In this document: piece by piece, positions 2,145 to 42,200 of the stretch
Position numbering within the stretch: the first letter of the stretch is position 1
Layout of the letters: each line of letters opens with the position of its first letter
From: Yuukianura sp. NJ FZ-2021
Lineage: Eukaryota
Length of the DNA: 64,000 nt
NCBI GenBank assembly: GCA_046563655.1
Contig: CM102289.1
Location: 7,626,001 to 7,690,000, forward strand
Reading direction: 5' to 3'
Made by a program: the position numbers and the translations under genes
Notes under the pieces: generated by a model
What the model saw: only the letters and a program-made list of their open reading frames with translations
Databases searched by the model: none
Told to the model about the DNA's origin: nothing

Positions 2145-3920
2145 GATTAATTGAAATTTTAATAAATTTTAATTAAAAAGAAGTTGAGTGACAGTAGCTA
2201 TCTGAGCCTCTTTTGTCAAAAAACTCCTAACCGAGCAAGAAGATTTTGCTTTTAACTAAAAATTTTAGCAATGATCTTTTTTTGAAAATTCTTGATTTTG
2301 AAAATTGAGGTTGTGGGAAGACGGTTATATAGTGGTGAGGTACATGCCATATTACTATTATTTTATAATTAAGAGTTCGTCATGCCAAGGTACGTTCACA
2401 AATTATTTATAAATTACCTCAAGCTTTTAGCCTTGATTGGCTCAAGCGACGCATAGTCAAATTTTACCTTCGGGTAGGTTCTGTGCTTGTTTAAACCGAG
2501 TTAGGTCAAATGCCAATTTCAAAAATTTTGGTAACGCCAGGATAACAAAAATTTACGACAAAAGTTGACGAAGACTTTCAGAAGCATGTAAACCGACGTT
2601 TTTCTACTCAGAAGATCCAAGAAGGCGTATAAGAGAATTGAGAAAAACAAAAATTTAATTTTTGTTGAAAGGAGATTCAATTTCGAAAACTTATGTCCTA
2701 ATAAAACGAATTTTTGACGTCCCTAAATTTCTAAACTTTTCGAACTTTTAGTTCCTTTAACTGAATTAGACGACAAGGAGTAGTGTACAAGCATTCACTA
2801 TTTTACGAAAATGTAATAACTTTTTCATTTGAATTTGTGCTTTGCCGGGTAAAAGTTGCTTCTTCTCATTTGTCATGTATTTTTTTGAATGTACATCGAC
2901 TTTTTGTACAAAATGTCAACATTAAGTTCGCATCAGTAATTCACTGTACACCAAACTTTTTCAGACGCCAAAATTCTAACAGTAGACTAAATTCAAACTG
3001 ATGCTGTCTTTCTCTTGCTCATGCAATGCGGGTGCTACGGATTTGAGTGACTTTAAAATATTGAATAACGTATATAATTTTTGTTGTAACTAATGCGGGA
3101 GCATAAAAAAATACGTTTTAAAAACAAAGCACTTTTAGAACAAAGTCTTCTTCGGAACGTCGTAAACATGCGTCTCCAGAAAAATAAAAATAGGTCGACT
3201 TAAAACAGAAATTTTTGTCTCATGTTTTAGTTTTACTAAAAAGCTAAATTCAGTGGTGTACCGCTGTATCCTTATTAATTTATAGATGTCACGCGTGTTT
3301 CAGAACTCCGCGTTTTAACTCCATGCATTACCACAATTTCAGCCGCTTTGCTAAACACTAGTTTTGCGAAACATGAATAACGAGCGATCAGCGTCGCCCC
3401 TAGTTAATTTTGGTTAAGCAGAACGGCGCTGAAAACAAGGTTATCTAGTGATAAATTATCTGCCCGAGTTGATGCAGGAGCCTAAGGATATTTTAGACAC
3501 CGCTGATCCAGAGAAATGTTGGTGGATTATGGCTTAGAGGAAGTGAAATTTTAAAATGAGGAAAACTACTGAAAGTGCAGAAGGGAAAAAGTTTTGGACC
3601 GAATTTGATTATATTTTTAATTGAAGATGAGAACTAGATGAGAACTTAATTGGAGAAAAAAAAGAAGAGAAAAAAATTACGCAAGTAGACCTAACTTGAT
3701 TCTAAGTTCATCCGTATTGAAGCCTAAAAATTTAATTATACGGCACGCGAACTTTTTTATTCAAGTGCTTATTCGAATAAGGAAATTTGAAGTTTTAAGG
3801 CACAAAAGAAAATCAAATTTTCTCCACACTAAATTTTCCTTAATCTGTAAATCCGTTTGAATCCTCTTCTTCACTCTGGCTCTTCTTCATCCTAACTTTC
3901 TCTTTTATGATTTTTGCAAG

Positions 3921-6900
3921 ATGTGGATTGACTACAGTCTGCGATGGAATCCAGCCGAATATGGTGGTATCAAAGTAGTCAGAATACCTGCATCACAAGT
4001 TTGGCGCCCGGATATCATCCTGTACAACAACGTAAGAACAAAACATACTGAATACACTTTAGGCCAACATTTCTATTTTAACATTTCAACATTTAGCCAA
4101 CAACACAATTTCTACAAAGTTTTTGAATTTGTAACACTATTGTCAGTTGAAATTGTCCTACAAACAAATCAAAATCGCTAGAATATGGTGCGAAAATTGG
4201 AAAAAAAATTAGAAGGGGAGAATTTTCTAACAAAAAGAAAGTCGAGGTTTAGCTGCATAGGCTGTAGAGAAATTTACTTTTTTGTAGTAAAATTTCCAAA
4301 TTAACTGAGGAAACTGTATTATGTTGTCTTGCATATGTGCAGTTATTTTTAGAATTCAATTCTTGAGCGCAGCAGTATCAATACATTTAACTTTCAACAT
4401 TTGAAAAGTTTTTGGAAAACAGACGCAGAAAAGGTTTTGGAGTTAAGAGATGCGGAAAATATGGTGATTTTGGTGCAATTCTGCCAGGAGGATGAGTGAA
4501 GTTAACCTTCTCTTAGGTTCCAGCTTTCTCTGTCGGTAGCTTTCACTCGATTTTCTCCAAAGAAAGCTTTCCTTTGTCTCTGTCAGGCTTATTGTCACCT
4601 ATAGTTAGAGGAAGTCTGTATTTAAGAGCAAGAACTTAGCCTTAGTAGGAAAACAGAGTCTCTAATGTATGCAGTCCAGCGACGCGAAGTCTAATCTAAC
4701 GCTGCTCTAAAATCTAGAACTGCTGATGGTCTTAGAACTCAGAAAAACCACCAAAGGACAACGTTGAAATTCTAAAATGGTCTGTCGCTAGTCTTATACG
4801 TGCTTAAATTTTGGAAATAGCGTTTCAGGGAATCTACCTTGGAACATCATAATTGGTTAAATTGGACATGATTCATTTTGAATTAGAAGCGTAGAAAAGA
4901 AAATCCAGTTGCGTTTGTCTTAATATTTTCTATTTGATTTCTTTCTTGTACGTTTCAGGCTGATAGTCAGTACAACTTGGCCATTCTAAGCACGAACGTA
5001 ATCGTTACATCAGACGGAAATTTAACGTGGTTGAGCACAGCAATTTTCAAATCCTCCTGCCAAATTAACGTCGAGTACTTTCCATTTGATGAGCAAAAGT
5101 AAGTTCTTGAGTAGCGAAAGTTGAATCATAATTCAAAAATAATTTGTGACTCAAAAAGCTTCCTAAAGGACAAAAACAAAAAAGTTTGTAAGAAGACTGC
5201 TGTTTTCAAACCTTTTACTTTCTCTTTTCTATCTGTAGATGTGAAATGAAATTTGCCAGTTGGACTTATGATGGTTTTCAGGTAAAGTTGAAATGCTTCC
5301 AAAACGTTATGATTTATAGCAATGATTTATTATTAATTATTTATGAAATTTAAGGTTTCAATTAAGTTTAGACTTAACGATATTAAATTTTTGTCTCTAG
5401 CTCAACCTGGTGATTCAAACGGAGGAAGGAGATTTGTCCAACTATGTTAGTGCATTTACGCTTCCAGATCAAAAGCACCAAACAATTAGCGCGAATTTCA
5501 CAAGTTGGCAATACTGCACCCAAATGAAATTTAACCCACCCTTTAAAAAGCCTAATCTTTACATCTTCAATATGATTCAGTTCCACCGTTGCCAGCTTGT
5601 GAATTGTTTATTATTTTTTTATTTTTGTTTTTTGCACTTATTGTTTTCGCAATAATGACTTGCTACAGAATTTACCATGAAATCTTTCAGTTCGTAAAAA
5701 TAATATTTGCGTAATTTAAGTTATGCTGAATCATCATTCATCAACAATATTGAAACATATTACACTATGTTAATTCGTTTAAAAATATATTAAAATATAT
5801 TATGTTGTGTTAATCAAAATGTCATTAGGTACCCAACGGAGAGTGGAATTTGATTTTGATGCAACAGAAACGCCACTTGGTTTTCTACTCCTGTTGTCTC
5901 GAGCCATATCCTGACATTACTTATTACATTGTTCTACGTCGTAGACCGCTCTTCTATGGTAAAAACAAACCCAAGCTATAATTTTTTAAAAGTTATGATT
6001 TTGAACTTTTTAAATTTTAGTTTTCAATCTCATCCTCCCCTGCGTCCTCATCTCTGGGCTGGCTCTGCTCAGTTTCTACATGCCGTCAGACTCTGGTGAA
6101 AAAGTGACTCTGGGGATCACGACGCTTCTGTCCATGACTGTCTTCTTGATGGTCATCGGAGAGAGGTAAATGGGTGCCATTTTGTCATTCTTAAAAGCCC
6201 CTACGACATCAACAGATGCTCCCAGTAGTTACTCCCGCCAACCAAACTTCTCATGATTTACATAAGACATTTGTCTTATGGATTTCTGGAACATGCTCTC
6301 TTCTCTAAACTACTCATGTACATTTCCCAAAAAGACTCAACCCAAAGACGACTTCATCGATGTACCACTTTGTCCATGAGTCTGAAAACCTTTTATTGCT
6401 TGAATCTGGAAATGTCACATCTTGCGATTTACAGAGTTGTAGTTAGAAAAGCCTAAAACCGAAAATGTTAAGAGTAAGACTGAAGTGAAAGCAAAGCCAA
6501 ACTCTACTTTCACGTTCAAAAGTTTTCCCAACTTTCTTCTTCTCTTTATGGAGTTTGACTCTGATCTTATTTCTGAAACATGGATTTGGTGTTCCAAATT
6601 TTTGTAAAATTGACTTTGTACTTTTGTTGCAGTATGCCACCGACGAGTGAGAAGCTTCCTTTGATCGGTAAGTGGATCTCATACCTTGTTTCAAATAAGG
6701 TTGAACAAATAAAGATGCTTGGCACGAAAGTCACCTCTCTTCATCTAACTTTGAAGCGTCCATTTCCTTCTGAGTTCTCCTTCACGGAACAATACATCTC
6801 GTGAAAAATTCAAGAACCAAATTAAAACTTTTAGAAATCACTTTTTAACTTCAGTTTCAATTCAGTTAGAAAGTTCCACTTTCTGAACTAGTTTAAAAGC

Positions 6901-11494: not shown

Positions 11495-13468
11495 ATGGCA
11501 TCTACAGTTATCAGTGGTGGTCGTGGCCTTCTCCTTATGAGTTCCAAGTGTAATCATCTTGCTTCAAGAGTTAAAACTTGCTTGTCATCGGTCAAAGAGC
11601 GTGCCTGCCAAACACTATTTGTGTATCTGCTGAGGGACAAGGAATATTCTACAAGGGATGAAGCCAAATGTCAACCTCAGCTCTTACGAACGGACGATTG
11701 TTCTAACGTAAGGATTTGTAGATATTAAACATATTACCGTTTTTCAACAAATAATTATTAGTTTTATATATTGCAGAGTGTGAATGGATTCAGCCATGCA
11801 ACTCGGGTTATATACTCTCAAGCCAGTGCTGTTTGTCCGTCGATAGATGTCAGACTTCTGCTCAGCAGAAGGGAACTCGTCGGTCATAATTCCAAGCAAC
11901 AGCAACACTCACTCGTTCCGAACGGCTTAAATTTGAAGCCAGTTGAATGGATTGTGGCTGAATCTTGCTTGTCTAGGCAAGACGTGGATCAGTTTGTTCA
12001 GTTAAACTTCAATGGTGGAAGTCAGCAAAGCCAGTCGACATCATTCCCAACCATAAATGTTGTGAATACTGTGGAAGGATCTGCCAATGACGCTGACGAT
12101 TACCGACCTGATGAGTCTGTGCGAAATACTGATGCAATATTCTCCTCGGTTGTCTTGGGCGGTACATTTGACGGTATCCATAATGGCCACAAAGTGCTAC
12201 TTACAGAATCTGCTATTCGATGCTCCTCGGAACTAATCATCGGAGTTACCGATGACAACATGGTTCGAAGTGAGTATTTTCAATTTTTTATTCGTGAGAT
12301 TTAATTATTGATGCCTCTTATTCTTTAGAAAAAACACTTTATGAGTTAATCCAGCCAACGGACGTCCGGATCGAACGTGTCAATGATTTCTTACGTGACA
12401 TTGCGCCCAATTTGACCCTCCGTGTTGTTCCAATCGATGATCCTTTCGGTCCAGCCATTATGGATTCACATATTGAGCTTATCGTCGTTTCGGAAGAAAC
12501 GATAAGAGGAGCCAACAAAATTAACGAAATTCGGATCCAGAAAAACTTTCCTCCACTTCTGATTCATTCCATTCCTATTTTCGAGGATACTAGAAGAGAA
12601 AACGATCACGAGGAAGAGAAAATCAGTTCCAGTTCTATGCGAATTCGCTTACTAGGACATCGATTGGCACCTCCGGTATCTTAATTCAACCTTAATCGTC
12701 ATGAATTATGTCACTTGATTTATTTTTACATTTTCAGCTCAAAACTCCGTCTTTGCCGTATATCATTGGCCTTACCGGTGGAATAGCAAGCGGAAAGACG
12801 AAACTAGGCGAGTACATGGTAGAAGTAAAGGGGATTCCTGCTATCGACTGTGATAAATTGGCCCATGAAGCTTACAGAGCCGGAACACCGTGTTTTGACC
12901 AAGTCGTAGCAACTTTTGGTAACGATCTCGTCAACGCCGAGGGACAAATCGACAGAAGAGTACTTGGAACCAAAGTGTTTGGAAATCCTGCAGAACTGAA
13001 GAAGTTGACGGACATTGTTTGGCCAGAGATTAGCCGATTGGTACAACAGAAAATTGAGGGATTTGTGCAAAATGGTGCTAAAATTATCGTAGTAGAAGCA
13101 GCAGTACTTGTAGAGGCTGGATGGGACTCTTTGTGCCATGAAGTCTGGGTAGCATTCATATCAAGAGATGAGGTAATGACACAATCCAAAAAAAATTACG
13201 CAACTTACACGATCTTGTTAACGTTTTCTGGATGTTTAAGGCCATAACAAGAATCCAACGGCGTGACAACCTACCGGAAGACCGTGCAGCACAGCGAGTC
13301 GATTCTCAAATTTCAAACATGGCCAGACTGAAGAAAGCCACATTTGCTTTTTCGTCGCTTTGGGATGTAGAATTTACACGGAAACAAATTGAGAAAGCAC
13401 TGGCTGATATCCAACTAATCGTAGATTCCGTAACGGTAACACCCAACACTTCAAAAATTAATCAATGA
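11495..13468 (+). CDS. COASY: Bifunctional coenzyme A synthase (PPAT + dephospho-CoA kinase)
   Basis: 5 exons. VVLGGTFDGIHNGHK (HxGH); DPFGPA; VVSEET; KISSSSMR; IIGLTGGIASGKT (P-loop); IDCDKLAH; LTDIVWPEI. AATAAA at about 13493. Confidence 0.95.
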
Positions 13469-26826: not shown

Positions 26827-29800
26827 ATGGTAAGTGAAACAAATTCTTTCTTTTTTTGTACAAACAAAGTTTTAAATAAATTGAATTTTTTCTTTACTTT
26901 AATTAAAATTCTGATCTTTGAAAAAAAAATTCAATAGTTAAAAATTCGGACGTTAGTTAATTTTTATTTTTCGCAACTGTAAAGTTTTGATCCGTGGGCG
27001 ATTTCGAAATTGTGCAATTTGTAGTTGGCAAAATTGGAAAGTTGTTAGGGAGTTCTCAATGATTTGGCAATGTCCTTTATGAATAAGGCATGAATTTACA
27101 GTTAACATTCCTTAAGGATATGCAGATCTGTCAAATTTGGCACCAAACGATTCGAATACAAAAACCTTGATTGACTATTTAAAATTTCTTGTCATTTTTG
27201 GCAACATTTTATGAATTTTTTTTTATTCTAAAACTTTTTGATAACTTTTTGTTTTAGGCTGATGGACATGCCAATTTAGGATTTCAAGAAGACAATAAAA
27301 ATGAAAATCAGCCACCATTTTCGCTACCAAGAGAATCAGTGGATAGCAACGAAGATTTTAAGACAAAAACACATTTTAGATGGGAATCTGCATTGCCTCC
27401 GGAACACAACAACAGGAATGCTTCACTCGGCACAATTTCCAAAAAAGTAAATTTGTCTAAAATGAGTTTGATTTGATGAAATTTGTGAATTGATGATGAA
27501 AATTTGTCTAAAATTTGAAAACGTGGCCTCTCATGTTCTCACCACTTGGTTTGGATTGTGTAATACTTAGGTTAGTGACGCCGAATCATATTCATCATAC
27601 GATAACTACGCCCTCGAACGTGGACAATGGACAAATCAACTTGAATTTTTATTCAGTTGTTTATCTATGAGTGTTGGTCTTGGAAATGTCTGGCGATTTC
27701 CAGTAACTGCATGTAAATTAAAAACTTATAGCAAATTAGCCAAGCACTTAAATCTAAAGTTTAAAAAAATATTGAAAATGTCAAATTTTTTGAATTTTAG
27801 ATGACAATGGCGGTGGAGCATTTCTGATTCCGTATTTCATTGTACTCATATTTGTTGGTAGACCGATTTACTTTCTGGAACTTTGCGTTGGTCAATTTTG
27901 TTCGCAAAGTCAAGTCAAAATTTGGCGTGCCAATCCTTTGTTCAAAGGTACAACTTTTTGGAAAAAAATTTCACATAAAATTAATTTTTTTAAAGTAATT
28001 CTTACTAACTTTCTTTATGTTTAAGGCGTGGGATGGGCAGCAATGATAGCAACTTTGAGTGTGATGTCTTACTACAGCTCCATCATGGCGCTGACAATTT
28101 TCTACTTTTTCGCATCTTTTTCAAAAGTTCTTCCATGGACAGTCTGTGATCCCACTTGGGAAGGAGTAGATTGTGATGCCGTTAATACAACATCCACAGC
28201 AGAACTCTATTTTAAGTAAGCTAATTGCTCTAATTGTCAGAAAAATCAAAATTTGAAGTTCGAAAATTTTTGGAAAACAATCAAACCAAACAATTTTTTT
28301 TTCAGAAATGAAGTGCTAAAAGAACTGCCCAACATCGACAACGGTATTGGATACCCAGAAATACGCTTATCCCTGTGTCTCTTATTAACCTGGATCATCA
28401 TCTACCTATCACTGATCAAAGGAGTCAAAAGTTCAGGAAAAGTTGCCTACTTCACAGCACTTTTTCCTTATGTCATTCTCATTACGTTTTTGATTCGTGG
28501 AGTTACGCTGGAGGGGGCATCGATTGGCATAGAAGCATTTCTGAAACCTGATTGGCATAAGCTGTATGACCCTGTCGTTTGGTACGTTCAAAATTTTACA
28601 AAATTTGATTTTCATTGTCCAGGTTTGAAAATTCAATTTTGAATTTCCAGGTATAATGCTATTAGCCAAGCCTTTTTTAGCTTAAATACTGGATTTGGCT
28701 CTGTCATTATGTTTGCGTCGTTCAATCCATTTCGACATAACATTTACAGAGGTAATCCGTCTGACCTTTGACCTCAAAAATTTAGCATAATGTTAATTGT
28801 ATGTTTATTTTTTGAGTTTAGACGCTGTTATTCTGAGTGTTATGGACACACTGACTTCGTTTGTGGCTGGAATCACTGTATTTTCTGTCATGGGCTACTT
28901 GTCATACAACTCTGGTGAAGATATTAGCACTATTGTTGGTGGTGGTGGTACGACAATTGCATTTGTGGCATATCCTACCGCCATTGCAGAATTTCCGTTA
29001 CCACAGGTAAAAAAGTTTCAAAATATCATAATTTTGACAAAAATTCAAAAATTTAAACAAAAGTTTTGTTTTTAGCTCTTTGGCGTATTGTTCTTCCTGA
29101 TGTTGTTTACATTGGGAATTGGCTCAGCGACGGCTGACGCCGGCGCAGTAATTTCCCTCTTTGCTGACAAATACACCACCTTCAAACGTTGGAAAATTAC
29201 GACAATAGTTTGTATCTCGGCATTTGCAGTGGGATTAGTATACTGCACTCCTGGTGGCCAGTACATCCTAACGTTGGTGGATTACTACGGTGCTGCTTTT
29301 GTCATCTTCTTAACCAGTATACTTGAGGTAAAGTCATTGACCTGTTTTGAGAAATTATGAAAATATGAAACTTAGAACAAATTTGTTTTTAGGTTATTGG
29401 CCTATGTTGGGTGTACGGTCTGAGCAACTTCTTGAGTGACATGGAGTTTATGTTGAACACGAAATTGGGATGGTACTGGAAGATTTGTTGGGCAGGAATA
29501 ATTCCAGTTGGTCTCAGCTGCATTTTAGTCTACGGTTTGATTTCGGCTGAAGCACTCGAATACAACGATGTTCCTTTCCCGACTTCAGCCATAGGTGAGG
29601 CAAAATTTGATTAAATACATTATATTACATACATATATACTATAATTATAGTTATCATAAATCAACTAATCTTTTGTAATCTGATTTTGAAGTTGCCGGT
29701 TGGTTGCTCGCTGTGGTATGTCTTCTGCCTCTACCAATTTGTGCATTTTTAGCACTGCAAAATGCTGAAGCTGAGGGTTTGGTTGGTGTAAGTTGAAATT

Positions 29801-30417: not shown

Positions 30418-33058
30418 ATGCCTAAAGCTCAAGATTTGGACGACAATGTAAAAAGACAATTTTTCAGCTAAAACTGTTTTGCAAAATTTTATTCAGTGAA
30501 CATTTCCATTTTGAACAGGATTACAAAGCTGATTCCGCCGATGCATCGGCCAGTGAAGTTGGATTTGACGGAGACGGTGAAGGAACGTGGGATGACATTC
30601 CGCTGTCTCAGTCATCTTCCGTAAATGACATGGAATCACGGGCTCGAACAGTATGTAAAAATTTTGAAGTATTTCAAAAAACTTAAACTGAGTTGGAAAT
30701 TGTGAACAAATGCAGAAGTCGGAAATAGAAGAGCTTCAACTAGATTCCGAAGAAAGAGATCAATGGTCCAATCAATACGAATTTCTGTTTTCTTTGATCT
30801 CAATGAGCGTCGGTCTCGGAAATGTTTGGAGGTATCTTTTTGTAAATTAAATTCTTCGTAAAACCAATTTCAAAATTTCGAACAGATTTCCAATAGTTGC
30901 TTCAGCCAATGGCGGTGGAGCGTTCCTCATTCCGTACTTGATTGTACTCATGTTCGTGGGACGCCCAATTTATTTTTTGGAATTGGCCATTGGTCAGTTT
31001 TCATCTCAAACACAAATCAACATTTGGACTTGTTGTCCAATTTTGAAAGGTAACGTTGGTTTTTAAAATTTCTACACTTTCACTAAATTTTAAATTTTGA
31101 AATAGGAATTGGAATCTCTTCGATGTTGTCTACAATTTGTGTTTTGACATACTACACAAGCATCCTGTCTCTAATTACTATGTACTTTGTTGAATCATTC
31201 TTCCCTGTTCTACCATGGACTCAATGTTCTGAAATGGTGAAACCAAACTGTACTTTTCATAACGTCTCCACTGCCAAATCTCACTTGAAGTAATTAAATT
31301 TGCAAAAAAAAATTGTTTTTCTAAGTTTCTGTTGTTAATTTTTCTCATTCTTAGGTACGACGTTTTACATCAGAAAGAAAACATCGACGATGGCATTGGT
31401 CGAGCACAGTGGCATTTGACCCTTTGCCTTCTGTTTGCATGGCTTTGCATTTGCTTTTCTTTGATCAAAGGAGTCAAAAGTTCAGGAAAAGTGGCCTACT
31501 TCACAGCATTGTTTCCGTATGCGGTGCTGATCATACTGCTCATCCGTGGAGTGACGCTGGAAGGAGCAGGAACGGGGATTCTAGCGTTCCTCAAACCAGA
31601 TTTTTCAAAATTGATCAAACCAAAGGTACAAAGCTGTATTTTAACAAAATTTGCAAGGTTGTTTTTCATTTTGAAATTTAGTTTTTGGTCAGGTTTGGTA
31701 TGAAGCGACTAATCAAGCATTTTTTAGTCTCAACACTTGTTTTGGATCAATCATCATGTTTTCCAGCTTCAATCCTTTTCGACACAACATTTACCGGTAA
31801 ATTTGCAACAGTTATCGTTAATTTGCATTATTTATTTGCAAAATTACAATATTTGGCGGCAAGCTTTGTGTAAACGAAAAGTAATTGTCCAATTTTGTTC
31901 ATTTTTTTTTGCAGAGATGCAATAATTCTGAGTTTCATGGACACTTTGACGTCACTAATCGCCGGAATCACTGTTTTTTCAGTTGGTGGATTTTTGGCTG
32001 TAAAAACTGGAAAAAGTGTTGAAGAAATTCTTGACGGTGACACTGGCATTGCTTTCATAGCTTATCCAACAGCCATTTCGGAATTGCCGTGGCCAAATGT
32101 ATAGTTAATTTAATTCTGAAACCTTCAAAATTTCGAGAAAAAAAATTTTTTTTTTCTGGGTTGCAGTTTTTTGCTGTACTGTTTTTCTTGATGCTGTTTG
32201 CACTGGGCCTTGGCAGTTCTGCGGCGGATGCTGGCGCTGTTATTTCCATAATCGCTGACACTTTTCCGAGACTCAAGCGCTGGATAATCACATGCACAAT
32301 TTGTCTCTTAGCGTTTCTTGTGGGAATTCTCTACGTGTAAGCTACGATCCAAAAATTTTCAATCTTTTTTATACTTTTTAATTTACTTTTCAAAAACATA
32401 TTTGCAGGACTGAGGGAGGACCGTTTGTTTTGAATTTAGTAGACACTTTTGGAGCATCATTTTCAATTTTCATTGTGGGAATTTTGGAAATTACCGGAAT
32501 TGCCTACATTTACAAACTGAGCAATTTCATCAGTGATGTGGAGTTTATGCTGAATAGGAGGTTAGGCTGGTACTGGAAAATCTGCTGGTACGGAGTCATT
32601 CCTGTAGGTCTGTCTGGAGTGCTGATTTACGTCTTGGCCTTCCAATTGTTCAGTGAACCACTTAGCTATGCTGGGGCTCCTTACCCCGTTTCAGCTATTG
32701 GTAAGTTAAAAAAAATCAACAACAAATAGTTCAGACAGAACTGAAACTTTACTCATCTTAAGTTGATTTAATTTTGTTTTGTAAATTGTAGTTATGGGGT
32801 GGCTGGTGGCTGTGATGTGTTTGTCTCCGATAGTGATTTGTGCAATTATAGAACTGATTCAAGCTAAGGGCGTGACATTTCTTGACGTAAGTGTTTGAAC
32901 CTGCGAGTTAAAGTTTTCAAATGCTTTAGTACATTTTTTTAAACATTCTTTTTTAGAAATTGAAGCAAGCTTGTAAACCAAAGAGGACTTGGGGTCCTAG
33001 AAATCCATCGATCAGGGCTGAATGGAAAGAGTGGAAGGAAGGACACGGAAGAACTTAA
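30418..33058 (+). CDS. SLC6 sodium-dependent nutrient amino-acid transporter (NAT-like), copy 2
   Basis: [71 protein letters not shown]. Tandem paralog of copy 1. Confidence 0.92.
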
Positions 33059-33530
33059 AAAATTTTCACTTCAAAATCTTTAATTGGCAAAAAATTAAAA
33101 TTTCGTATGTTTACCCGATTTCGAAATTCCAAATGGTCTCTGTAAAAAAAATTGTGTTTTCGGCTGATGTGTTTCAGTGCTTATGTCTTTGTTGCTGATG
33201 TGTTTTCTGCTTATGTCTTTTTTCTAGTAAGTATAACAATGATTGACGTTTGCATGTTTAATATCTTTGTGATCAGAACGAGGAGGAGTTGAGACGTGGA
33301 AACAAATTCCTATTTTCGTCAAGGCTAAATATATTAAAAAGACGTAGACCCATTAATTTTTTTTGCATGGAATTCACGCTTCGCAGTTCCTCTGATTTAA
33401 GCTTTCAATAGTTTCTTCCTTGAAGTCAATTTCATTTCTTCTTCACATTCTCTGCAACTGTTGAGCAGAGCAGACAGTTGAAGTTTTAACTTCAACAAAA
33501 GTCAAACAGTTTAAAACACAATTTTCAAAA

Positions 33531-34042
33531 ATGTCTGAAGAGGGAAAAGATTTGAGAGGTGGCGCGTGTTGTGCTTCGAGCAAACATTACGTACAATACC
33601 TGGTAGAGCAGCAACCCATGGTCACTCCATGTCCAGAAGTTGTGGCTCACCTTGTACATTTGACGTTCCCTCCTGGTGACATCGGAGCTCCCCCACATAC
33701 TCATCCTGGCCCAGTCGTTGGCTATGTTCTGGAAGGCGAATTCCTGTTTCAGGTAACTGCGCTAAAGTTTTGCTATTGAAAGTTTACTGAATTGTACGTT
33801 CCATTTTTAACATTCTTGCTTAGATGAACGGTGAACCACGACGCATACTCAAAGCTGGTGAAGCATTCTACGAAAGATATGGTGACATCCATGTCTGGTC
33901 TGCCAATGCATCGGACACTACGACCTGCAAGGTCGTGTCGACAGTATTCGGCATACCAGGGGAACCTGTCTCAACAGACGTCGAAGGTCATCCACGCGAA
34001 AGTCGACGAGAGGCATTGGAACTCGCCCGTCAAGGAAAATAA
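33531..34042 (+). CDS. Cupin-2 domain protein A, 146 aa
   Basis: Exons 33531-33752 and 33824-34042 (phase-0 intron). PPHTHPGPVVGYVLEGE and LKAGEAFYERYGDIH cupin motifs. Confidence 0.9.
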
Positions 34043-35027
34043 ACATATACTATTAAGTAACTTTGCCGTTCTTAAATTCATATTTCAGAAATATAGCCTA
34101 AAAAGCGGTGGCATTCGATTTCGTCTATCTTAAAATTTCATCTGCTTAGCATTCTTTTGATATTTGTAAAAAATACGCTGACTTCTGATGTCATAAATCA
34201 TGTTTTGGCACTGTTCCAATGAAATGACGCACTTATTCGTGAACCTTTCAACTTCAAATTTCTGGTATCGTTGTATTCTTGGTAAAACGACTTTGCCAAA
34301 CATCTTTAACAAGCAGTTCTCACACATTTAAAACATAATTAAAACCAAAACTGGATAAATTGATTGAATTTTAGACTAATCGTGGAAATCAGAAATAATT
34401 ATCTTTTTCTAATGTCAACTGGAAATGAAAAATGTGACATTTATGTTACAAGTGCAAAAAAGAAATTTTTTCGAAACACATGGACTTTTTTTTACCACTG
34501 CACTGGTCGTTCTTCCGCCGCAAGGCGGCCGGCTTACTTTTCAAAAAAAAAATCGAAAAATAACAAAATTCTGAACACCTTCATTGTAATTTAGATGCAC
34601 TGTAATGCATTTGTAATCAGAACAAGATAACGTTGAGGCGGAGGAAACAAATTATATTTTAATTTTCGAGAATTTTAGTTTGTATTGTTTCCAAATAATA
34701 ACGTTCACCCGGCTGAGGGCTGAGGCATAATAATTAAACTAAATTAAATAATTAAATGTAATTATTCATAAGGGATAATTGCCAAAAATTATTTATTTCC
34801 GTCAATGTGAAACAAAAAGCAGCGAAGCCGTTCAATTGACAAATCAATTTTTGATTTTTTGCAAGATTATTACGTTTGCTTTGCAGTGTTTAAGCTATAA
34901 ATAAATAGTTTCTCCCATGATGTCATTTTGTTCGCATTCTGTGGAACGCTTGCCCTGAGAGGAGACTGTTTAAGTTTTAATTTCAACAAAAGTTAAGGTT
35001 AAGCAGGTTAAAACGTAACTTTCAAAT

Positions 35028-35561
35028 ATGTCTGAAGAGGGAAACGATTTGGGAGATAGCGGATGTTGTGCTTCGAGCAAACATTATGTGCAGTACGTCA
35101 TGAAGCAACCTTTGGACATCCCATGTCCAGAGGTTACGGCTCATTTGGTCCATTTGACGTTCCCTCCTGGTGACATCGGAGCTGTCCCACACACACATCC
35201 TGGCCCAGTCGTAGCGTACGTTCTGGAAGGCGAATTCCTATTCCAGGTAACTGAAAAGCTGAAGCTTGTTTAGCGAAAGTTAGTTACTGAATTGATTGCA
35301 AGCTTTAAAGTAATTAGGCATTTTTCCTTTTTGAACTTTTAGATGCACGGTGAACCACGACGCATACTCAAAGCTGGCGAAGGATTCCACGAAGAACATG
35401 GCGGCATCCATGTCTGGTCTGCCAATGCATCGGACACAACGACATGCAAGGTCGTGGCGACCGTGTTAGGCAAACCTGGGGAACCAATCGCGACCGACGT
35501 CGAAGATCATCCACGCGAAAGTCGACAAGAGGCGTTGGAGCTTGCGGCTCAAGGAAAATAA
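35028..35561 (+). CDS. Cupin-2 domain protein B, 145 aa
   Basis: Exons 35028-35246 and 35343-35561. VPHTHPGPVVAYVLEGE; LKAGEGFHEEHGGIH. Confidence 0.9.
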
Positions 35562-35705
35562 ACATATTGAGTACCTTGATCGTTCTTAAATTCATATTTA
35601 AGAAATAGAGCATGAAAGCAGCACATTCCAATACGTCCATTTTAAAATTTCAACTTCTTATCATTATTTTTCGAAAACGTGTTGTAAAAGTTTTGTAAAT
35701 TCTAG

Positions 35706-35977
35706 TCATGGGGTGGCTTGTAGTTTGTGGTAGGTGGTTTGTTTGTCCCAGGTAGTGATTTGCGCTTTAATAGAACTGATTCAAGCTAAGGATGTGACAT
35801 TTCTTGACGTATCGTGACGTTTCTTTCGATTTACGAAACCGAGTTAAATTTTGAAATGGTTTTGTCCAAACTCGTTAATCAATTTTTCGTTTTAAAAGAA
35901 ACTGAAACAAGCTTATACACCAGAAAAGACTTTAGAAATTCATCTTAAGGCTGAATGGAAAGAGTGGAAGAACTTAA
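35706..35977 (+). pseudogene. Degenerate duplicate of the last two exons of NAT copy 2
   Basis: Sequences such as TAGAACTGATTCAAGCTAAGG..GTGACATTTCTTGACGT and GGCTGAATGGAAAGAGTGGAAG match 32792-33058, with indels. Confidence 0.85.
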
Positions 35978-36541
35978 AAATTCTTCGCTTCAAAATATTT
36001 GGTAAACGATTGGGAAAAGGTTGGGACCAAATTAAGATTTCACATTTTTTGCCCAGTTTTTGAAAATTTCGGCATACAATTTCAAAATGGTCTCTGTAAA
36101 AAAAATTGGAACGCGCTTTCACCACTGTGATGCTGGTCGTCCCGTATAACTTATAACATTGCTCAACGTTTGATAACTTCGTAATCAGAAATACGTAACG
36201 CAGAGGCGAGGCGGAGAAAATTTTTTATTTTCGTCAAAGTGAAATATCAGACGGCGAAGGCATTTGTCATTATAATTGATGTAATTTTCTGCTTATGTCA
36301 TTTTTCTCATGTATTGGCGTATAGCAAGTGTTTTTCGTCAAGGCTAAATAGATTAAAACGACGTAGACCCATTAACTTTTTTGCATGGAATTCACGCTTC
36401 GCAGTTCCTCTGATTTAAGCTTTCAAAAAGTAAGTTTCTTCCACGTAGTCAATTGCTTCTTCAAATTGTGTGGAATCCACAGTAGACTGTTTAATTTCAG
36501 CAAAAGTTAAAATTGAACAGGTCAGAACAAAATTTTCAAGA

Positions 36542-37050
36542 ATGTCTGAAGAGGGAAAAGATTTGAGGGATGGCGGTTGTTGTACTTCGAGGAAAGCTAA
36601 TTTGCAATACGTCATGCAACAACCCCTGGTTACTCCATGTCCAGAACTTGTGGCTCACATGGTCCATTTGACGTTCCCTCCTGGTGACATCGGGGCTCCC
36701 CCACATACTCATCCTGGCCCAGTCGTTGGCTATGTTCTGGAAGGCGAATTCCTGTTTCAGGTAACTGCGCTAAAGTTTTGTTATTGAAAGTTTACTAAAT
36801 TGTACGTTCCATTTTTAACATTGTTCCTTAGATGAACGGTGAACCACGACGCATACTCAAAGCTGGTGAAGCATTCTACGAAAGATATGGTGACATCCAT
36901 GTCTGGTCTGCCAATGCATCGGATACTACGACCTGCAAGGTCGTATCGACAGTATTCGGCATACCAGGGGAACCACTCTCAACAGACGTCGAAGGCCATC
37001 CACGCGAAAGTCGACAAGAGGCATTGGAACTCGCAGCTCAAGGAAAATAA
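36542..37050 (+). CDS. Cupin-2 domain protein C, 145 aa
   Basis: Exons 36542-36760 and 36832-37050. Intron and exon 2 nearly identical to copy A. Confidence 0.9.
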
Positions 37051-37380
37051 ACATACCATTAAGTAACTCTGTCGTTCTTAAATTCATATTTCAGAAATAG
37101 AACCAAAAAGCAGTAACATTCGACTTCGTCTATCTTAAAATTTCATCTGCTTAGCATTCTTTTGATATTTGTAAAAAAATTCACCTACTTTTGATGTAAT
37201 TAAATCATGTTTGCCGCTGTTCTAGTTGATGAAATGACACACTTATTCGAGAATATATCAACTTTTTTTGGGGGTGGAACGACTCAAACATCTTTAACTC
37301 AGTTCTCACACATGTAAAACATAATTGTTTAACTTCGACAAAAGTTAAAGTTGAACAGGCTAAAACAAAATTTTCAAAAA

Positions 37381-37892
37381 CTTCTGAAGAGGGAAAAGAT
37401 TTGAGAGATACATGGCGGTTGTTGTACTTCGAGGAAAGCTAATTTGCAATACGTCGTGCAACAACCCCTGGTCATTCCATGTCCAGACGTTGTGGCTCAA
37501 ATGGTCCATTTGACGTTCCCTCCTAGTGACGTCGGATCTGACCCACACACTCATCCTGGTCCAGTCGTTGGCTATGTTCTGGAAGGCGAGTTCCTCTTTC
37601 AGGTAACTGCGCTAAAGTTTTGTTATTGAAAGTTTACTGAACTGTACGTTACATTTTTTACATTCTTTCTTAGGTGAACGGTGAACCACGACGCATACTC
37701 AAAGCTGGTGAAGGATTCTACGAAAAATATGGCGACATCCATGTCTGGTCTGCCAATGCGTCGGACACTATGACCTGCAAAGTAGTGGCAACCGTGTTAG
37801 GCAAACTACGGGAACCAATTTTGACTTACGTCGAAGGTCATCCACGAGAAAGTCGACGAGGGGCATTGGAGCTTGCCGCTCAAGGAAAATGA
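37381..37892 (+). pseudogene. Cupin copy D, probable pseudogene or N-truncated form
   Basis: Start ATG lost (AAAACTTCTGAAG vs GAATGTCTGAAG in C) and a 4-nt insertion near 37410. Downstream frame intact from ATG 37501. Exons end at 37602 and resume 37674-37892. Confidence 0.7.
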
Positions 37893-39233: not shown

Positions 39234-42200
39234 ATGGCTTTCTCGGGGCTGAGAAAGCAGATTAACAAGGCTAATCAGGTTAGTTTACTTTGGACCTTCG
39301 TTAGCATCGAGGTTAACGCCTGCTAATCATATTATAGAATCATCGGATGTGTGCGTCAAACGAGTATGACTGATTCTCAGAACGTCTTTGTTTTTGTTGT
39401 CACTCGAGCTGCGTGAGATTGTGTTGGATAAGATGGATGAATCTGATGGATGAGAAAGAGTCACATGATGAACTTTCAGTTTTCCCTTAAGTTCTGACGT
39501 GACTTTCCAGTTTTTTTGCTTGGGTGTTAAACTGCTTATGAGTGCATTTTCGTGTTAATGGGAACATGGGACCGGTTAGGGGAGAATGGACGTGGATGTT
39601 TATAAGAAAGTCAAATAGTAAGTTTGCTTCTGGATAAATGTTCCAATTGACAAAATGTTTTTTGTTTGAACTGTAATTTGATAGTACATGACTGAGAAGA
39701 TTGGCGGAGCCGAAGGCACGAAGCTCGACGATGATTTCGTGGAAATGGAGAAGGTTAGACTCATTGCAATTTGAGATTTTTGTTAACGGTCAATTTACAA
39801 GAAATTAATGTTCATTAATGTTTGTATTCCAGAGAACTGATATAACTTATGAACTGGTCGAAGATTTACAACTGAAGACTAAGGAGTACTTACAACCGAA
39901 TCCAACAGCACGGGCTAAAATGGCAGCAGTCAAGGGGATATCTAAGCTTAGCGGTCAAGCTAAGGCATCTACTTATCCTCAGCCGGAAGGAGTACTTGGG
40001 GAATGTATGACTACGTATGGCAGGAAGCTGGGAGATGATAGCTTGTTTGGTACGTAACGACTATGATAATTAAAAAAAGAATCCTGGAGTTTCATAATTT
40101 AGTTTAAGTTTTTGGTATTTAGCCCAATCACTCATGGAAGCCGGGGAGAGTCTGAAGCAAATGGCGGATATCAAGTACTCTCTGGATGACAACGTAAAGC
40201 AGAATTTCTTGGAGCCACTTCATCATCTCCAGACGAAGGACATCAAAGAAGTTATGGTAAGAATACAGTCAGTTAGATAAAATATCATGTCGACTAACAG
40301 TAAAACTACTATATACTAATTTTGATTTTGTTATGGCCAATCAGCATCATAGAAAGAAACTGCAGGGACGTCGATTAGATTTTGATTGTAAAAAGAGGAA
40401 GCAATCTAAAGGTACGGGTAAGCGCAAATACACTTTACTTTTACTACTTTTCTTTATAATTTTTTCAACAAGCACCGCGCCCCCTCTTCATGACTGCTCC
40501 TCAACCTCAACTCACTAACACCACTTCAACAGTTTTATAAAATAACCTACTTTCAATCAAGGTTAGTCGAGTATAGGCTAACAAACTCACCAGCCTAACA
40601 AACAGTTAACAATTTATCACTAAAACACTCTTGGACGTTGACTTTCTTTTTGGCGAGACAAGGCAACTTTCAAGTATGGTTAAGGTTTGGGAAGTACATA
40701 CTTGTAAATTTTGAGAGATCAAAATATGTCAAACAGGTTTTCGTTAATACTTTCTTGCACTATACTATGCACAACTCACACGCATGATTTTATTTAAGCT
40801 TTTTTGTACAATGCATGACTTTAATTTTTATTTTGGTTGACATTTTTTTCAAATGAAACTAAACTTAGCTCTACTCAAAAATCCGCAACCAAACCGAAAT
40901 CCGAACTCTTCCGACAATTTTTCCGGGAGCTCAGGATCCGTTTCATCCCACGGTAAAAAAATTTTTTTTTTCATTGATTTTTTGAAGTAACGTTCTGATT
41001 TTATTGAATTGAGATTAATTGGTTTGACTGTGGATTTAAGTCCGTTGGACAAAAATTTGGATTTAGAGCAGTTCTAGTTCTAATTATTCCAAAAACTTTT
41101 CGTGTTCCAAAAAAGTTTACGATTGTTCAAGTCATTTTTCTAAACAAATAACTCTCAAATGAATTGAAAACTGCTCCTCAAATGCGTTGTTAGTCTTATC
41201 CATGTTTATATTGTACATAACATTTTTTTTTGCAAAAACGTGACTCTTGCTTAAATCTATTTGCTTGAATTATCACTCTGATATAACCCAAAGCACGCTC
41301 AATTCTGTAAAAACAAGGTAACTTAAAACACGGAATTGGCATTGGGAAGTTGGTTTTACTTTTAAGGAAGGAATGCTAATGAACTTTGTTAGTGCAACAT
41401 TTAAACACGAATTAGTGTGAGATTGGATGATTCCTAAATCTTAGTTTTAGATATGCGCTATGAGAATTTTAAAAACTAAACATGGATTTGTTTTTTATTT
41501 TTTTTATGTTTTGGTTCTTGCCTGCCAATTTTTACAACGTGATCTTCAAAACACTAATTTACAAAAACAACGTTTAAATCGAATCGTTTGGAATGGAATT
41601 CTGTTCCTCTTCTTCGGAATTTTTCGTACATAATCTGGACTAGGATCTCATGTTGCAGATGATGAAATTAAGTTGGCGGAAGACAAATTTGCGGAGAGTC
41701 TTCACTTGGCACAAATGGGAATGCACAATTTATTGGAGAATGATGTAAGTCGTTTTTAAAAAGTTGTAAACTTATCTTCTAATTTTTTCCAAAGAAGTTT
41801 CCGTTTTTATAGCTTTTTGGTTTAAACTTTTTTTTAGGTGGAACAAGTGTCACAACTGTCGACGTTTGCTGACTGTCTCTATGATTACCATCGTCAGTGT
41901 GCTGAGATTTTGAAAAATTTGTGTGAGACGCTGGAAGAAAAGTATGCATTTTTATTACTTTGCATTTGGAAGCTATAAAATCCGATTTTGAACTTCATTT
42001 TTTTTGGTTTTTAGGAAGCAGGAAGCAGCTCGTCGTCCAAAGAAGGAGTTTCAGCCTAAAACTCTGCAAGATTTGCAACTTCACTTGGATTCTGGGGATG
42101 GAATCAATCATCATTCAAATGATGGCTTAAATGGTAGTCGATCTTGCGGTCCTCCACCCCCGTACTTCCCGCCTGCTCAACCTTACCAAGGCATGGTTTA

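Follow-up and report, generated by a model that had tools for sequence, protein, structure and literature searches.

Genes of foreign origin have been reported from several animals that live in soil and litter, and springtails and fungus gnats are already known for them. Springtails are reported with fungal- or bacterial-derived genes (PMC5200902). The fungus gnat family Sciaridae is reported to hold terpene synthase genes that are otherwise found in Collembola and mites (PMC11665903), and for Bradysia, which belongs to this family, 28 "alien" P450 genes are described, 17 of which are ascribed to springtails (PMC12051294). Here we describe a tandem array of cupin genes in a stretch of 64,000 nucleotides from Yuukianura sp. 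NJ FZ-2021 (contig CM102289.1, positions 7,626,001 to 7,690,000), called the window below. The named animal relatives of these genes show the same pattern of Collembola plus Sciaridae, i.e., of soil and litter animals, as the P450 and terpene synthase sets (PMC11665903; PMC12051294), although those sets comprise other protein families and mites were not identified among the cupin relatives. The array is probably a local tandem family derived from a Cupin_2 gene that an arthropod lineage acquired long ago from a bacterium. For the family as a whole, a foreign origin followed by domestication can be proposed with high confidence.

The closest relatives in named animals are proteins of the springtail Folsomia candida (LOC110849722 and LOC110855649) and of the fungus gnats Bradysia coprophila (LOC119071017 and LOC119073106) and B. 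odoriphaga (KAG4068601.1). They belong to the same family and the same clade and are of the same length, 146-158 amino acids (aa). They are annotated as uncharacterized or hypothetical, and the UniRef name of the F. candida protein is "Germin-like". LOC110849722 has the same N-terminal G-x-C-C-T-S as the copies in the window, whereas LOC110855649 and the Bradysia proteins differ by a hydrophobic N-terminus that, judged by eye, resembles a signal peptide. The other relatives are single-domain Cupin_2 proteins of soil bacteria (Streptomyces, Mycobacterium, Nonomuraea), which have the same size (~130-160 aa), the same three histidines and likewise no canonical glutamate. They have the core motif PPG..G..PH.H.GP..GY.LEGE..F...GEP.R..KAGE.F.E..G..H in common with the animal proteins. 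In contrast, the bacterial genes lack the intron and have a G+C content at third codon positions (GC3) of 0.80-0.93, and one subgroup carries signals resembling those for twin-arginine translocation (Tat). They are named "cupin domain-containing protein" by NCBI and "quercetin dioxygenase-like cupin family protein" by IMG, and searches of PDB sequences and of NCBIfam found no characterised member among them. A mention of the cupin family in springtails or Bradysia was not found in the literature searched, although the genes may sit unnamed in published candidate lists; the words cupin, germin, PF07883 and quercetin do not occur in two searched supplements to the genome paper of F. candida. The cupin family appears to be previously undescribed in these arthropods, while its kind is known, namely that of the foreign-derived gene families of soil arthropods.

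The array lies on the + strand between 33.5 and 37.9 kb of the window and consists of four cupin units arranged head to tail, each made of two exons of ~220 nt (Table 1). The first-pass annotation, made from the sequence alone, had described four intact tandem cupins of ~145 aa. The four tandem units stand, but three of them are intact and copy 4 is dead. The open proteins of copies 1-3 were obtained by splicing by coordinates. Two further features of that description, a shared phase-0 GT-AG intron after FLFQ and an N-terminal Cys-Cys pair, were found again, the former at the same site in all four copies and the latter in copies 1-3. The predicted intron lies directly after the FLFQ codons, starts with GTAACTG and ends with TTAG in every copy. 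The exon junction reads CAG|ATG or CAG|GTG, which fits a proto-splice site. Copy 2 is the most diverged of the intact copies, with 80% aa identity to copy 1 and 81% to copy 3, whereas copies 1 and 3 are 89% identical. In each of the three intact copies an AATAAA signal overlaps the stop codon (at 34038, 35557 and 37046 for copies 1, 2 and 3, respectively). Scored on the exon pieces of the window, Pfam Cupin_2 (PF07883) matched seven of eight pieces at E <= 1: the four exon-1 pieces (E 2e-6 to 9.5e-5) and three of the four exon-2 pieces. The gathering score was passed by the exon-1 pieces of copies 1 and 3 only (27.8 vs 27.2 bits), although each of them holds just half a domain; the full-length relatives carry precomputed PF07883. 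A fifth copy was not found in the 64-kb window by tblastn with three relatives.

Table 1. Coordinates of the cupin units and of the features around them (positions in the window).
Feature	Position	Strand	Basis or remark
Cupin copy 1	exon 1 33531-33752, intron 33753-33823 (71 nt, GT..AG, phase 0), exon 2 33824-34042	+	intact, 146 aa
Cupin copy 2	exon 1 35028-35246, intron 35247-35342 (96 nt), exon 2 35343-35561	+	intact, 145 aa
Cupin copy 3	exon 1 36542-36760, intron 36761-36831 (71 nt), exon 2 36832-37050	+	intact, 145 aa
Cupin copy 4	exon 1 37380-37602, intron 37603-37673 (71 nt), exon 2 37674-37892	+	pseudogene
TATAAA box	34896..34901, 132 nt upstream of the copy 2 ATG	+	pattern search; sole such box of the array
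Decayed duplicate of the last SLC6 coding exon	~35699..35817	+	frameshift between ..MGWLVV and CLSQVVICALIELIQAKDVTFLDVS*
Second of two tandem SLC6 (SNF family) genes, downstream part	31263..32898	+	Pfam SNF, translation
Endophilin-type BAR gene exons	39809..40515	+	Pfam BAR on 39809-40054 and 40261-40515

The intron also occurs in relatives of these genes. Six contigs of one metagenome encode animal-type relatives, five of which splice cleanly at the same site, with introns of 73-125 nt and donors of the GTGAG or GTCCG type; the sixth locus breaks at the same place and meets a stop early in exon 2. Moreover, 14 database "proteins" are exon-1 open reading frames (ORFs) that stop a few residues past the Q, the next residue being Val (GTN) in 13 of them and Ala in one. 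Nine of these fragments are most similar to the Bradysia proteins, N-termini included, and the intron of Bradysia and F. candida themselves is read from such look-alike ORF fragments only. Because the same site is found in the four copies, five metagenome loci and 14 ORF fragments, the intron appears to be older than the array and common to the springtail-type and gnat-type branches. This agrees with the earlier proposal that the family was amplified after the gain of the intron. Two side observations concern the same site. At metagenome locus L083 (1632-2122), which is of the Cys-Cys type, an in-frame stop occupies the fourth codon of exon 2; the locus would be another pseudogene of the family, unless its splicing uses an acceptor a few codons downstream. 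In four animal-type sequences from ~1-kb metagenome or Logan contigs (P0004, P0007, P0009 and P0010), the ORF runs uninterrupted across the intron site; these may be either copies that lack the intron or assembled transcripts, and in the latter case they would demonstrate splicing in relatives.

The relatives are distributed unevenly. With exon 1 of copy 1 as query, two F. candida proteins (68 and 67% identity) and one metagenome protein were retrieved. A full-length F. candida query against 1.84 billion representatives gave 1423 matches at E <= 1e-3 and six at E <= 1e-30. Among the ten best relatives, those with an organism name belong to B. coprophila and B. odoriphaga; the rest are metagenome proteins or carry the generic cupin label of IMG. 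A word-indexed search returned 23 matches at E <= 1e-8, the named ones being two proteins of F. candida, one of B. coprophila and four of Streptomyces, the last at 47-52% identity. In a search with one genome per prokaryote species, 582 of the 602 matched stretches encode relatives (38-55% identity), and the best 80 of them are, by record title, 79 Actinomycetota and one member of the Ktedonobacterales. The spliced window proteins are about 64-66% identical to the F. candida proteins and to one metagenome locus, 48-58% to the Bradysia proteins, and about 40-53%, over nearly the whole domain, to the sampled actinobacterial proteins. Across the searches of 5.8 and 1.84 billion sequences that define the distribution of named proteins, F. 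candida and the two Bradysia species are the only named animals with relatives, and most matches come without an organism name. The genes had initially been assigned to the bacterial Cupin_2 type rather than to the metazoan cupins, which is borne out by this narrow range of named animals and by the 582 prokaryote stretches. The related claim of a horizontal acquisition also gains support, the distribution in named animals being patchy in comparison with prokaryotes and the animal genes being linked to host genes (see below).

A phylogeny had been put forward as a check on this claim, and it separates the animal-type sequences from those of bacteria. All 17 animal-type rows fall into a single clade in a tree of 133 rows (support of 99 in the Shimodaira-Hasegawa-like approximate likelihood ratio test, SH-aLRT) as well as in a more careful tree of 79 rows (100/100), where they sit on a stem of 1.02 without any bacterial row inside. 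In the latter tree, the named Actinomycetota make up a separate clade (100/97). Both trees are unrooted and comprise animal-type and bacterial sequences, and the alignment behind the 79-row tree has 146 columns. The nearest neighbour of the window copies is metagenome locus L082 (100/93), and the F. candida proteins join this group next (95/86). The Bradysia rows fall inside the animal clade, the backbone of which is a polytomy, and one Bradysia gene pairs with metagenome locus L085 (98/76). The animal clade has motifs of its own, i.e., HVWxANAS, PGEPxxTxV and a C-terminal ..RE.R.EAL.A. The favoured reading of these sequences is that the animal clade arose once and gained its intron once.

The composition of the genes resembles that of the host. 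GC3 is 0.42-0.49 in the cupins and 0.34-0.44 in seven host exons, vs 0.80-0.93 in the bacterial relatives, and the introns and spacers of the array have a G+C content of 0.30-0.32. The ratio of nonsynonymous to synonymous divergence (dN/dS) among the intact copies is 0.23-0.35 (Nei-Gojobori, own script), and copies 1-3 are under purifying selection. Together, dN/dS, which had been named as a check, host-like GC3 and poly(A) signals support the term "domesticated". The similarity between the copies is mosaic. Synonymous divergence between copies 1 and 3 amounts to 0.22 in exon 1 and 0.10 in exon 2, and exon 2 of copy 1 is nearly identical to that of copy 3, while the first 70 nt of the coding sequence of copy 1 resemble copy 2 (..SSKHYVQY..). 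The difference in dS between the exons, along with the resemblance of the 5′ part of copy 1 to copy 2, suggests gene conversion among the copies.

Copy 4, whose intron likewise measures 71 nt, appears to be a shorter duplicate of a unit of the copy-1/3 type. In place of the ATG it has ACT, and a 4-nt insertion 29 nt into exon 1 shifts the reading frame, frame 0 running into stops. Conserved positions are altered as well: the nearly invariant G49 (F. candida numbering) is replaced by Ser (PPGD to PPSD) and PGEP has become LREP, while all three histidines of the metal site are kept. The similarity to the other units starts only 46 nt before the former start, and this upstream region of at most 46 nt is putatively promoterless. 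Unlike copies 1-3, copy 4 has no AATAAA at its stop. The possibility that it is a working gene with an alternative start was rejected because there is no in-frame ATG after the upstream stop.

The array seems to have grown by duplication in place, since a decayed copy of the last SLC6 coding exon sits inside it. This relic apparently marks the start of the second duplication unit. The intact exon, located by translation at about 32785-32898, and the relic share a direct repeat (32812-32889 and 35734-35811) at 86%, and blastn aligns 35690-36108 with 32776-33154 at 67%. More generally, the stretch from the last SLC6 coding exon through copy 1 recurs ~2.9-3.0 kb downstream, and copy 3 matches copy 1, flanks included, at 85% over 1045 nt. 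The duplication had been said to carry host NAT exons with it; what was found is one decayed last SLC6 coding exon, not several exons. The placement of the array between ordinary animal genes, in turn, was corroborated by Pfam, which places a tandem pair of SLC6 (SNF) genes immediately upstream and a BAR gene of the endophilin type immediately downstream. As to the linkage of the block to host sequence, which had likewise been named as a check, contigs of all four runs examined (two studies) join copy 2 to the SLC6-like relic. On its shorter side, this joint is flanked by 72 letters in three of the runs and by 35 in the other. One run, whose label names a second organism, contains, in short contigs, a diverged version of the stretch, intron included.

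The proteins themselves are predicted to adopt a cupin fold. The classical metallo-cupin site consists of His, His and Glu in motif 1 and His in motif 2. In an alignment of 88 animal and bacterial sequences of the family, H56, H58, G60, G69, G86, F89 and H97 are invariant (F. candida numbering), and P48, G49, G64, Y65 and E91 nearly so. The two motif-1 histidines and the motif-2 histidine, which we take to be the classical cupin metal ligands, are present in copies 1-3 and also in copy 4. The canonical Glu, four residues after the second His, is absent; the position is occupied by Val in the window copies and by V, A, T or F in the family at large. In a profile alignment to germin, the germin Glu falls in a one-residue gap of the family. 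The initial description of an intact H-x-H..E plus distal H site is thus right for the three histidines, whereas its E is not at the canonical ligand position. The AlphaFold model of a 65%-identical F. candida relative has a predicted local distance difference test (pLDDT) score of 91.5 and comprises a disordered N-terminal segment of 20 residues, a barrel and a C-terminal helix. A fold search with this model (VIA-align) matched 142 PDB representatives at Z >= 8, and the 50 best of these (Z 11.1-14.0) are all cupins or related jelly-roll barrel folds.

The best cupin matches reach Z 13-14, and the longest alignments are those with GtHNL, an Mn-dependent hydroxynitrile lyase (PDB 4bif, Z 13.6 over 113 residues), and TM1010 (PDB 2f4p, Z 13.4 over 117 residues). 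Both resemble the family in having a single barrel with a C-terminal helix, but their identity to it is 18-20%. TM1010 is also the only PDB match by plain sequence (E 0.0016). By profile, the best match is germin or oxalate oxidase (PDB 1fi2, 2et7; E 4e-9), with which the HxH and the distal His align. However, germin has 201 residues, the match spans chain residues 45-140 only, and the Glu ligand lies in the gap mentioned above; eight to ten profile positions are set against gaps in germin, and Foldseek gives a TM-score of 0.55 with a root mean square deviation of 9. Membership of the germins or oxalate oxidases was rejected, the full Mn site (three His plus Glu) and the germin length both being lacking. 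Other candidate families were rejected on their NCBIfam scores: PuuR (15.8-23.9 bits vs a cut-off of 211), ureidoglycine aminohydrolase (17.8 vs 200) and (R)-mandelonitrile lyase (NF049940), which gave 16.6-20.3 bits vs 140 with two F. candida proteins, 16.6 with the bacterial protein P0012, and no match with Bradysia P0167 or the actinobacterial P0152 and P0169. NCBIfam contains no model of the family itself, and none of its other models comes near its cut-off. A specific function could not be taken from the fold either, because the Z-scores are tied with those of dozens of other cupins; Foldseek and VIA-align both return such tied generic cupins.

Some context on function comes from the bacterial relatives. 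Among 61 ORFs flanking the gene in 32 actinobacterial loci, an NmrA, NAD_binding_10 or epimerase-type neighbour occurs in nine loci, an adh_short neighbour in three and an ECF-type sigma factor in three, the rest being varied. These neighbours give a weak hint of redox metabolism that is too loose to name a pathway. In addition, one of the three loci with an ECF-type sigma factor also matched a SnoaL_2 domain. In loci L002, L004, L013 and L037 (~3320-4260), an NmrA or epimerase-type gene starts at the cupin stop or at most 3 nt from it, and the gene order suggests a two-gene operon of the cupin and the NmrA/epimerase-type gene in several actinobacterial loci. Three bacterial proteins of 280-322 aa (P0005, P0011, P0016) consist of two or three tandem domains of the same cupin subfamily, so the domain is also found fused to itself.

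The family has two kinds of N-terminus. A hydrophobic N-terminus is missing from the window copies, from one of the F. candida paralogues and from two metagenome loci, all of which carry G-x-C-C-[AT]-S, whereas a signal-peptide-like N-terminus (by eye) is seen in the second F. candida paralogue, in the Bradysia proteins and in four metagenome loci. Since the F. candida paralogues still align in this region, one form would have arisen from the other by small changes. The G-x-C-C-[AT]-S motif, which lies in the predicted disordered tail, may be a site of lipidation, of metal binding or of redox chemistry.

The following course of events would account for the array. A bacterial Cupin_2 gene would have been captured and then have gained one spliceosomal intron at a CAG|GT site, taking on host-like codon usage and poly(A) signals. 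Later on, the family would have diversified, some forms being secreted and others having no signal peptide. In the present genome, two genes would have been duplicated in place as one unit along with the last SLC6 exon, and a further partial, promoterless copy (copy 4) would have arisen and decayed while three copies stayed under purifying selection. A single capture could explain the occurrence in F. candida and Bradysia if the gene was afterwards either passed from arthropod to arthropod or lost many times. By analogy, transfer between arthropods is a reasonable second step, as the springtail and fungus gnat pattern matches that of the reported P450 and terpene synthase sets. The protein would most likely be a small single-barrel cupin that binds one divalent metal through H56, H58 and H97. 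It might act on a small metabolite from soil, fungi or litter as an enzyme of the oxidase, dioxygenase or lyase type and, having no signal peptide, the window copies might do so inside the cell. The word metalloenzyme is derived from the three invariant histidines and the fold; on this basis a metal-dependent enzyme is slightly favoured, while any specific chemistry that one might name would stand little chance of being the right one. A more far-reaching version, in which one capture and intron gain in a soil arthropod were followed by transfer from a springtail (or mite) to a fungus gnat, the chemistry is new for cupins and the intracellular Cys-Cys form is a membrane-anchored derivative of the secreted one, must be regarded as doubtful. 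If it were true, the cupins would be the third family, after the P450s and terpene synthases, in a pool of foreign genes of soil arthropods.

Several other histories have to be weighed against a single ancient capture from a bacterium. Springtails and fungus gnats both inhabit soil rich in bacteria of this kind, and each could have captured a similar cupin, the intron being gained twice by chance at the same proto-splice site (CAG|G). The junction CAG|ATG or CAG|GTG would suit such a site, and relationships inside the animal clade are largely open in both trees. Nevertheless, independent capture is unlikely given the long common stem (1.02, 100/100) of the 17 animal-type sequences with no bacterial row inside, an intron site that all animal-type sequences amenable to this comparison share, and the motifs HVWxANAS and PGEPxxTxV that the animal sequences have in common. 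The single clade, which is not nested inside a named bacterial clade, and the common intron would fit an ancient arthropod or hexapod gene that descended vertically and was lost in almost all lineages, a history that would require no transfer into animals within the arthropods. We consider this very unlikely: among 5.8 and 1.84 billion sequences, the named animal proteins come from F. candida and Bradysia only, bacterial proteins are 40-53% identical along almost the entire domain, and the Sciaridae are already reported with springtail and mite genes (PMC11665903; PMC12051294). As regards contamination by bacteria or misassembly, nothing speaks for it except that none of the short Logan contigs of the locus spans the distance from the SLC6 gene to copy 1. 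It is scarcely conceivable in view of the spliceosomal introns, the AT-rich introns and spacers, the host-like GC3, the AATAAA signals, the decayed host SLC6 exon inside the array and the contigs of four runs that join copy 2 to the relic.

The donor and the activity of the protein are points at which the proposed capture of a bacterial metalloenzyme gene is open to objection, and the evidence that weighs against it is gathered here. Most of the animal-type relatives come from metagenome or Logan contigs, and the five runs, of two studies, in which the stretch 32700-35700 was found, while they speak against contamination, are DNA runs only. In the unrooted trees, two bacterial groups flank or enclose the animal clade. 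The free 79-row tree places it among bacterial cupins with Tat signals, at a support of 90/81, which is not strong, whereas a tree in which the animal and actinobacterial clades are forced together is 8.0 log-likelihood units better (p 0.64 in the approximately unbiased, AU, test). The free and the constrained tree place the animal clade differently, and at this AU value an actinobacterial sister group fits as well as the free placement; the actinobacterial origin suggested earlier is a candidate that is compatible with the data but is not singled out by the free tree. A fungus or another eukaryote as donor could be argued from the ESM Atlas, which lists one Ascomycota cupin cluster at 0.96, the same language-model feature score as that of bacterial clusters, and from the fungal-type genes reported in springtails, where the source speaks of fungal- or bacterial-derived genes (PMC5200902). 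Such a donor is improbable, as the best-scoring named non-animal relatives, in searches that retrieved no fungal sequence, are all bacterial and an RR-type Tat-like motif, a prokaryotic feature, occurs in 22 of the 49 rows that make up the sister group of the animal clade in the 133-row tree. With respect to activity, the fold matches are all tied generic cupins, no NCBIfam model comes near its cut-off, and the model is that of an F. candida protein with 65% identity. Some cupins have no enzymatic activity, and the dimerisation domains of CENP-C and Mif2, the auxin-binding protein and seed globulins obtain fold-search scores as high as those of enzymes, so that the family, for which no characterised enzyme family was matched, might be a metal- or ligand-binding protein or an oligomerisation module. 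A non-enzyme of this type seems somewhat unlikely, since all 88 sequences keep three His at the positions of the classical metal ligands, accompanied by a nearly invariant Glu and Tyr, and oxidoreductases are found beside the gene in actinobacterial loci (NmrA/NAD_binding_10/epimerase in 9/32, adh_short in 3/32).

Should the capture of a bacterial gene in a single event be correct, the family would offer a compact and datable example of a bacterial gene turning into an animal gene, spanning the gain of an intron, the gain or loss of a signal peptide, a block duplication that took a host exon with it, and the decay of one copy. The common intron would be a clean marker for testing the movement of genes between soil arthropods. 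Moreover, the protein belongs to a very large and uncharacterised bacterial subfamily of three-His cupins, and the discovery of an activity would at the same time provide an annotation for hundreds of bacterial genes.

The rest of the window is ordinary animal DNA with 37% G+C. By Pfam, it contains a ligand-gated channel exon (Neur_chan_LBD), a CoA-synthase-like CoaE, a mitochondrial carrier, DnaJ, OAF and transporters, together with EGF, UbiA, LRR and homeodomain exons. At 11762-13244 (+), a cytidylyltransferase-like exon precedes one for a dephospho-CoA kinase, as in genes for a bifunctional CoA synthase; this is ordinary host content. In the second SLC6 gene, the SNF matches fall on ORFs 31263-31700, 31874-32101, 32041-32337 and 32382-32726. 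The tandem SLC6 genes (28220-29357 and 31263-32898, +) have a 183-nt exon stretch repeated at 72% (28371-28553 and 31420-31602), and this neighbourhood has therefore apparently been duplicated more than once. Between the second SLC6 gene and copy 1, the summed depth of Logan contigs at 33104-33305 is several times that of the flanks in four runs, and many contigs stop at 33178-33225 with unrelated continuations. The sequence of this segment contains short imperfect repeats (..GCTGATGTGTTT..CTTATGTC..), and it is probably a dispersed repeat or a minisatellite.

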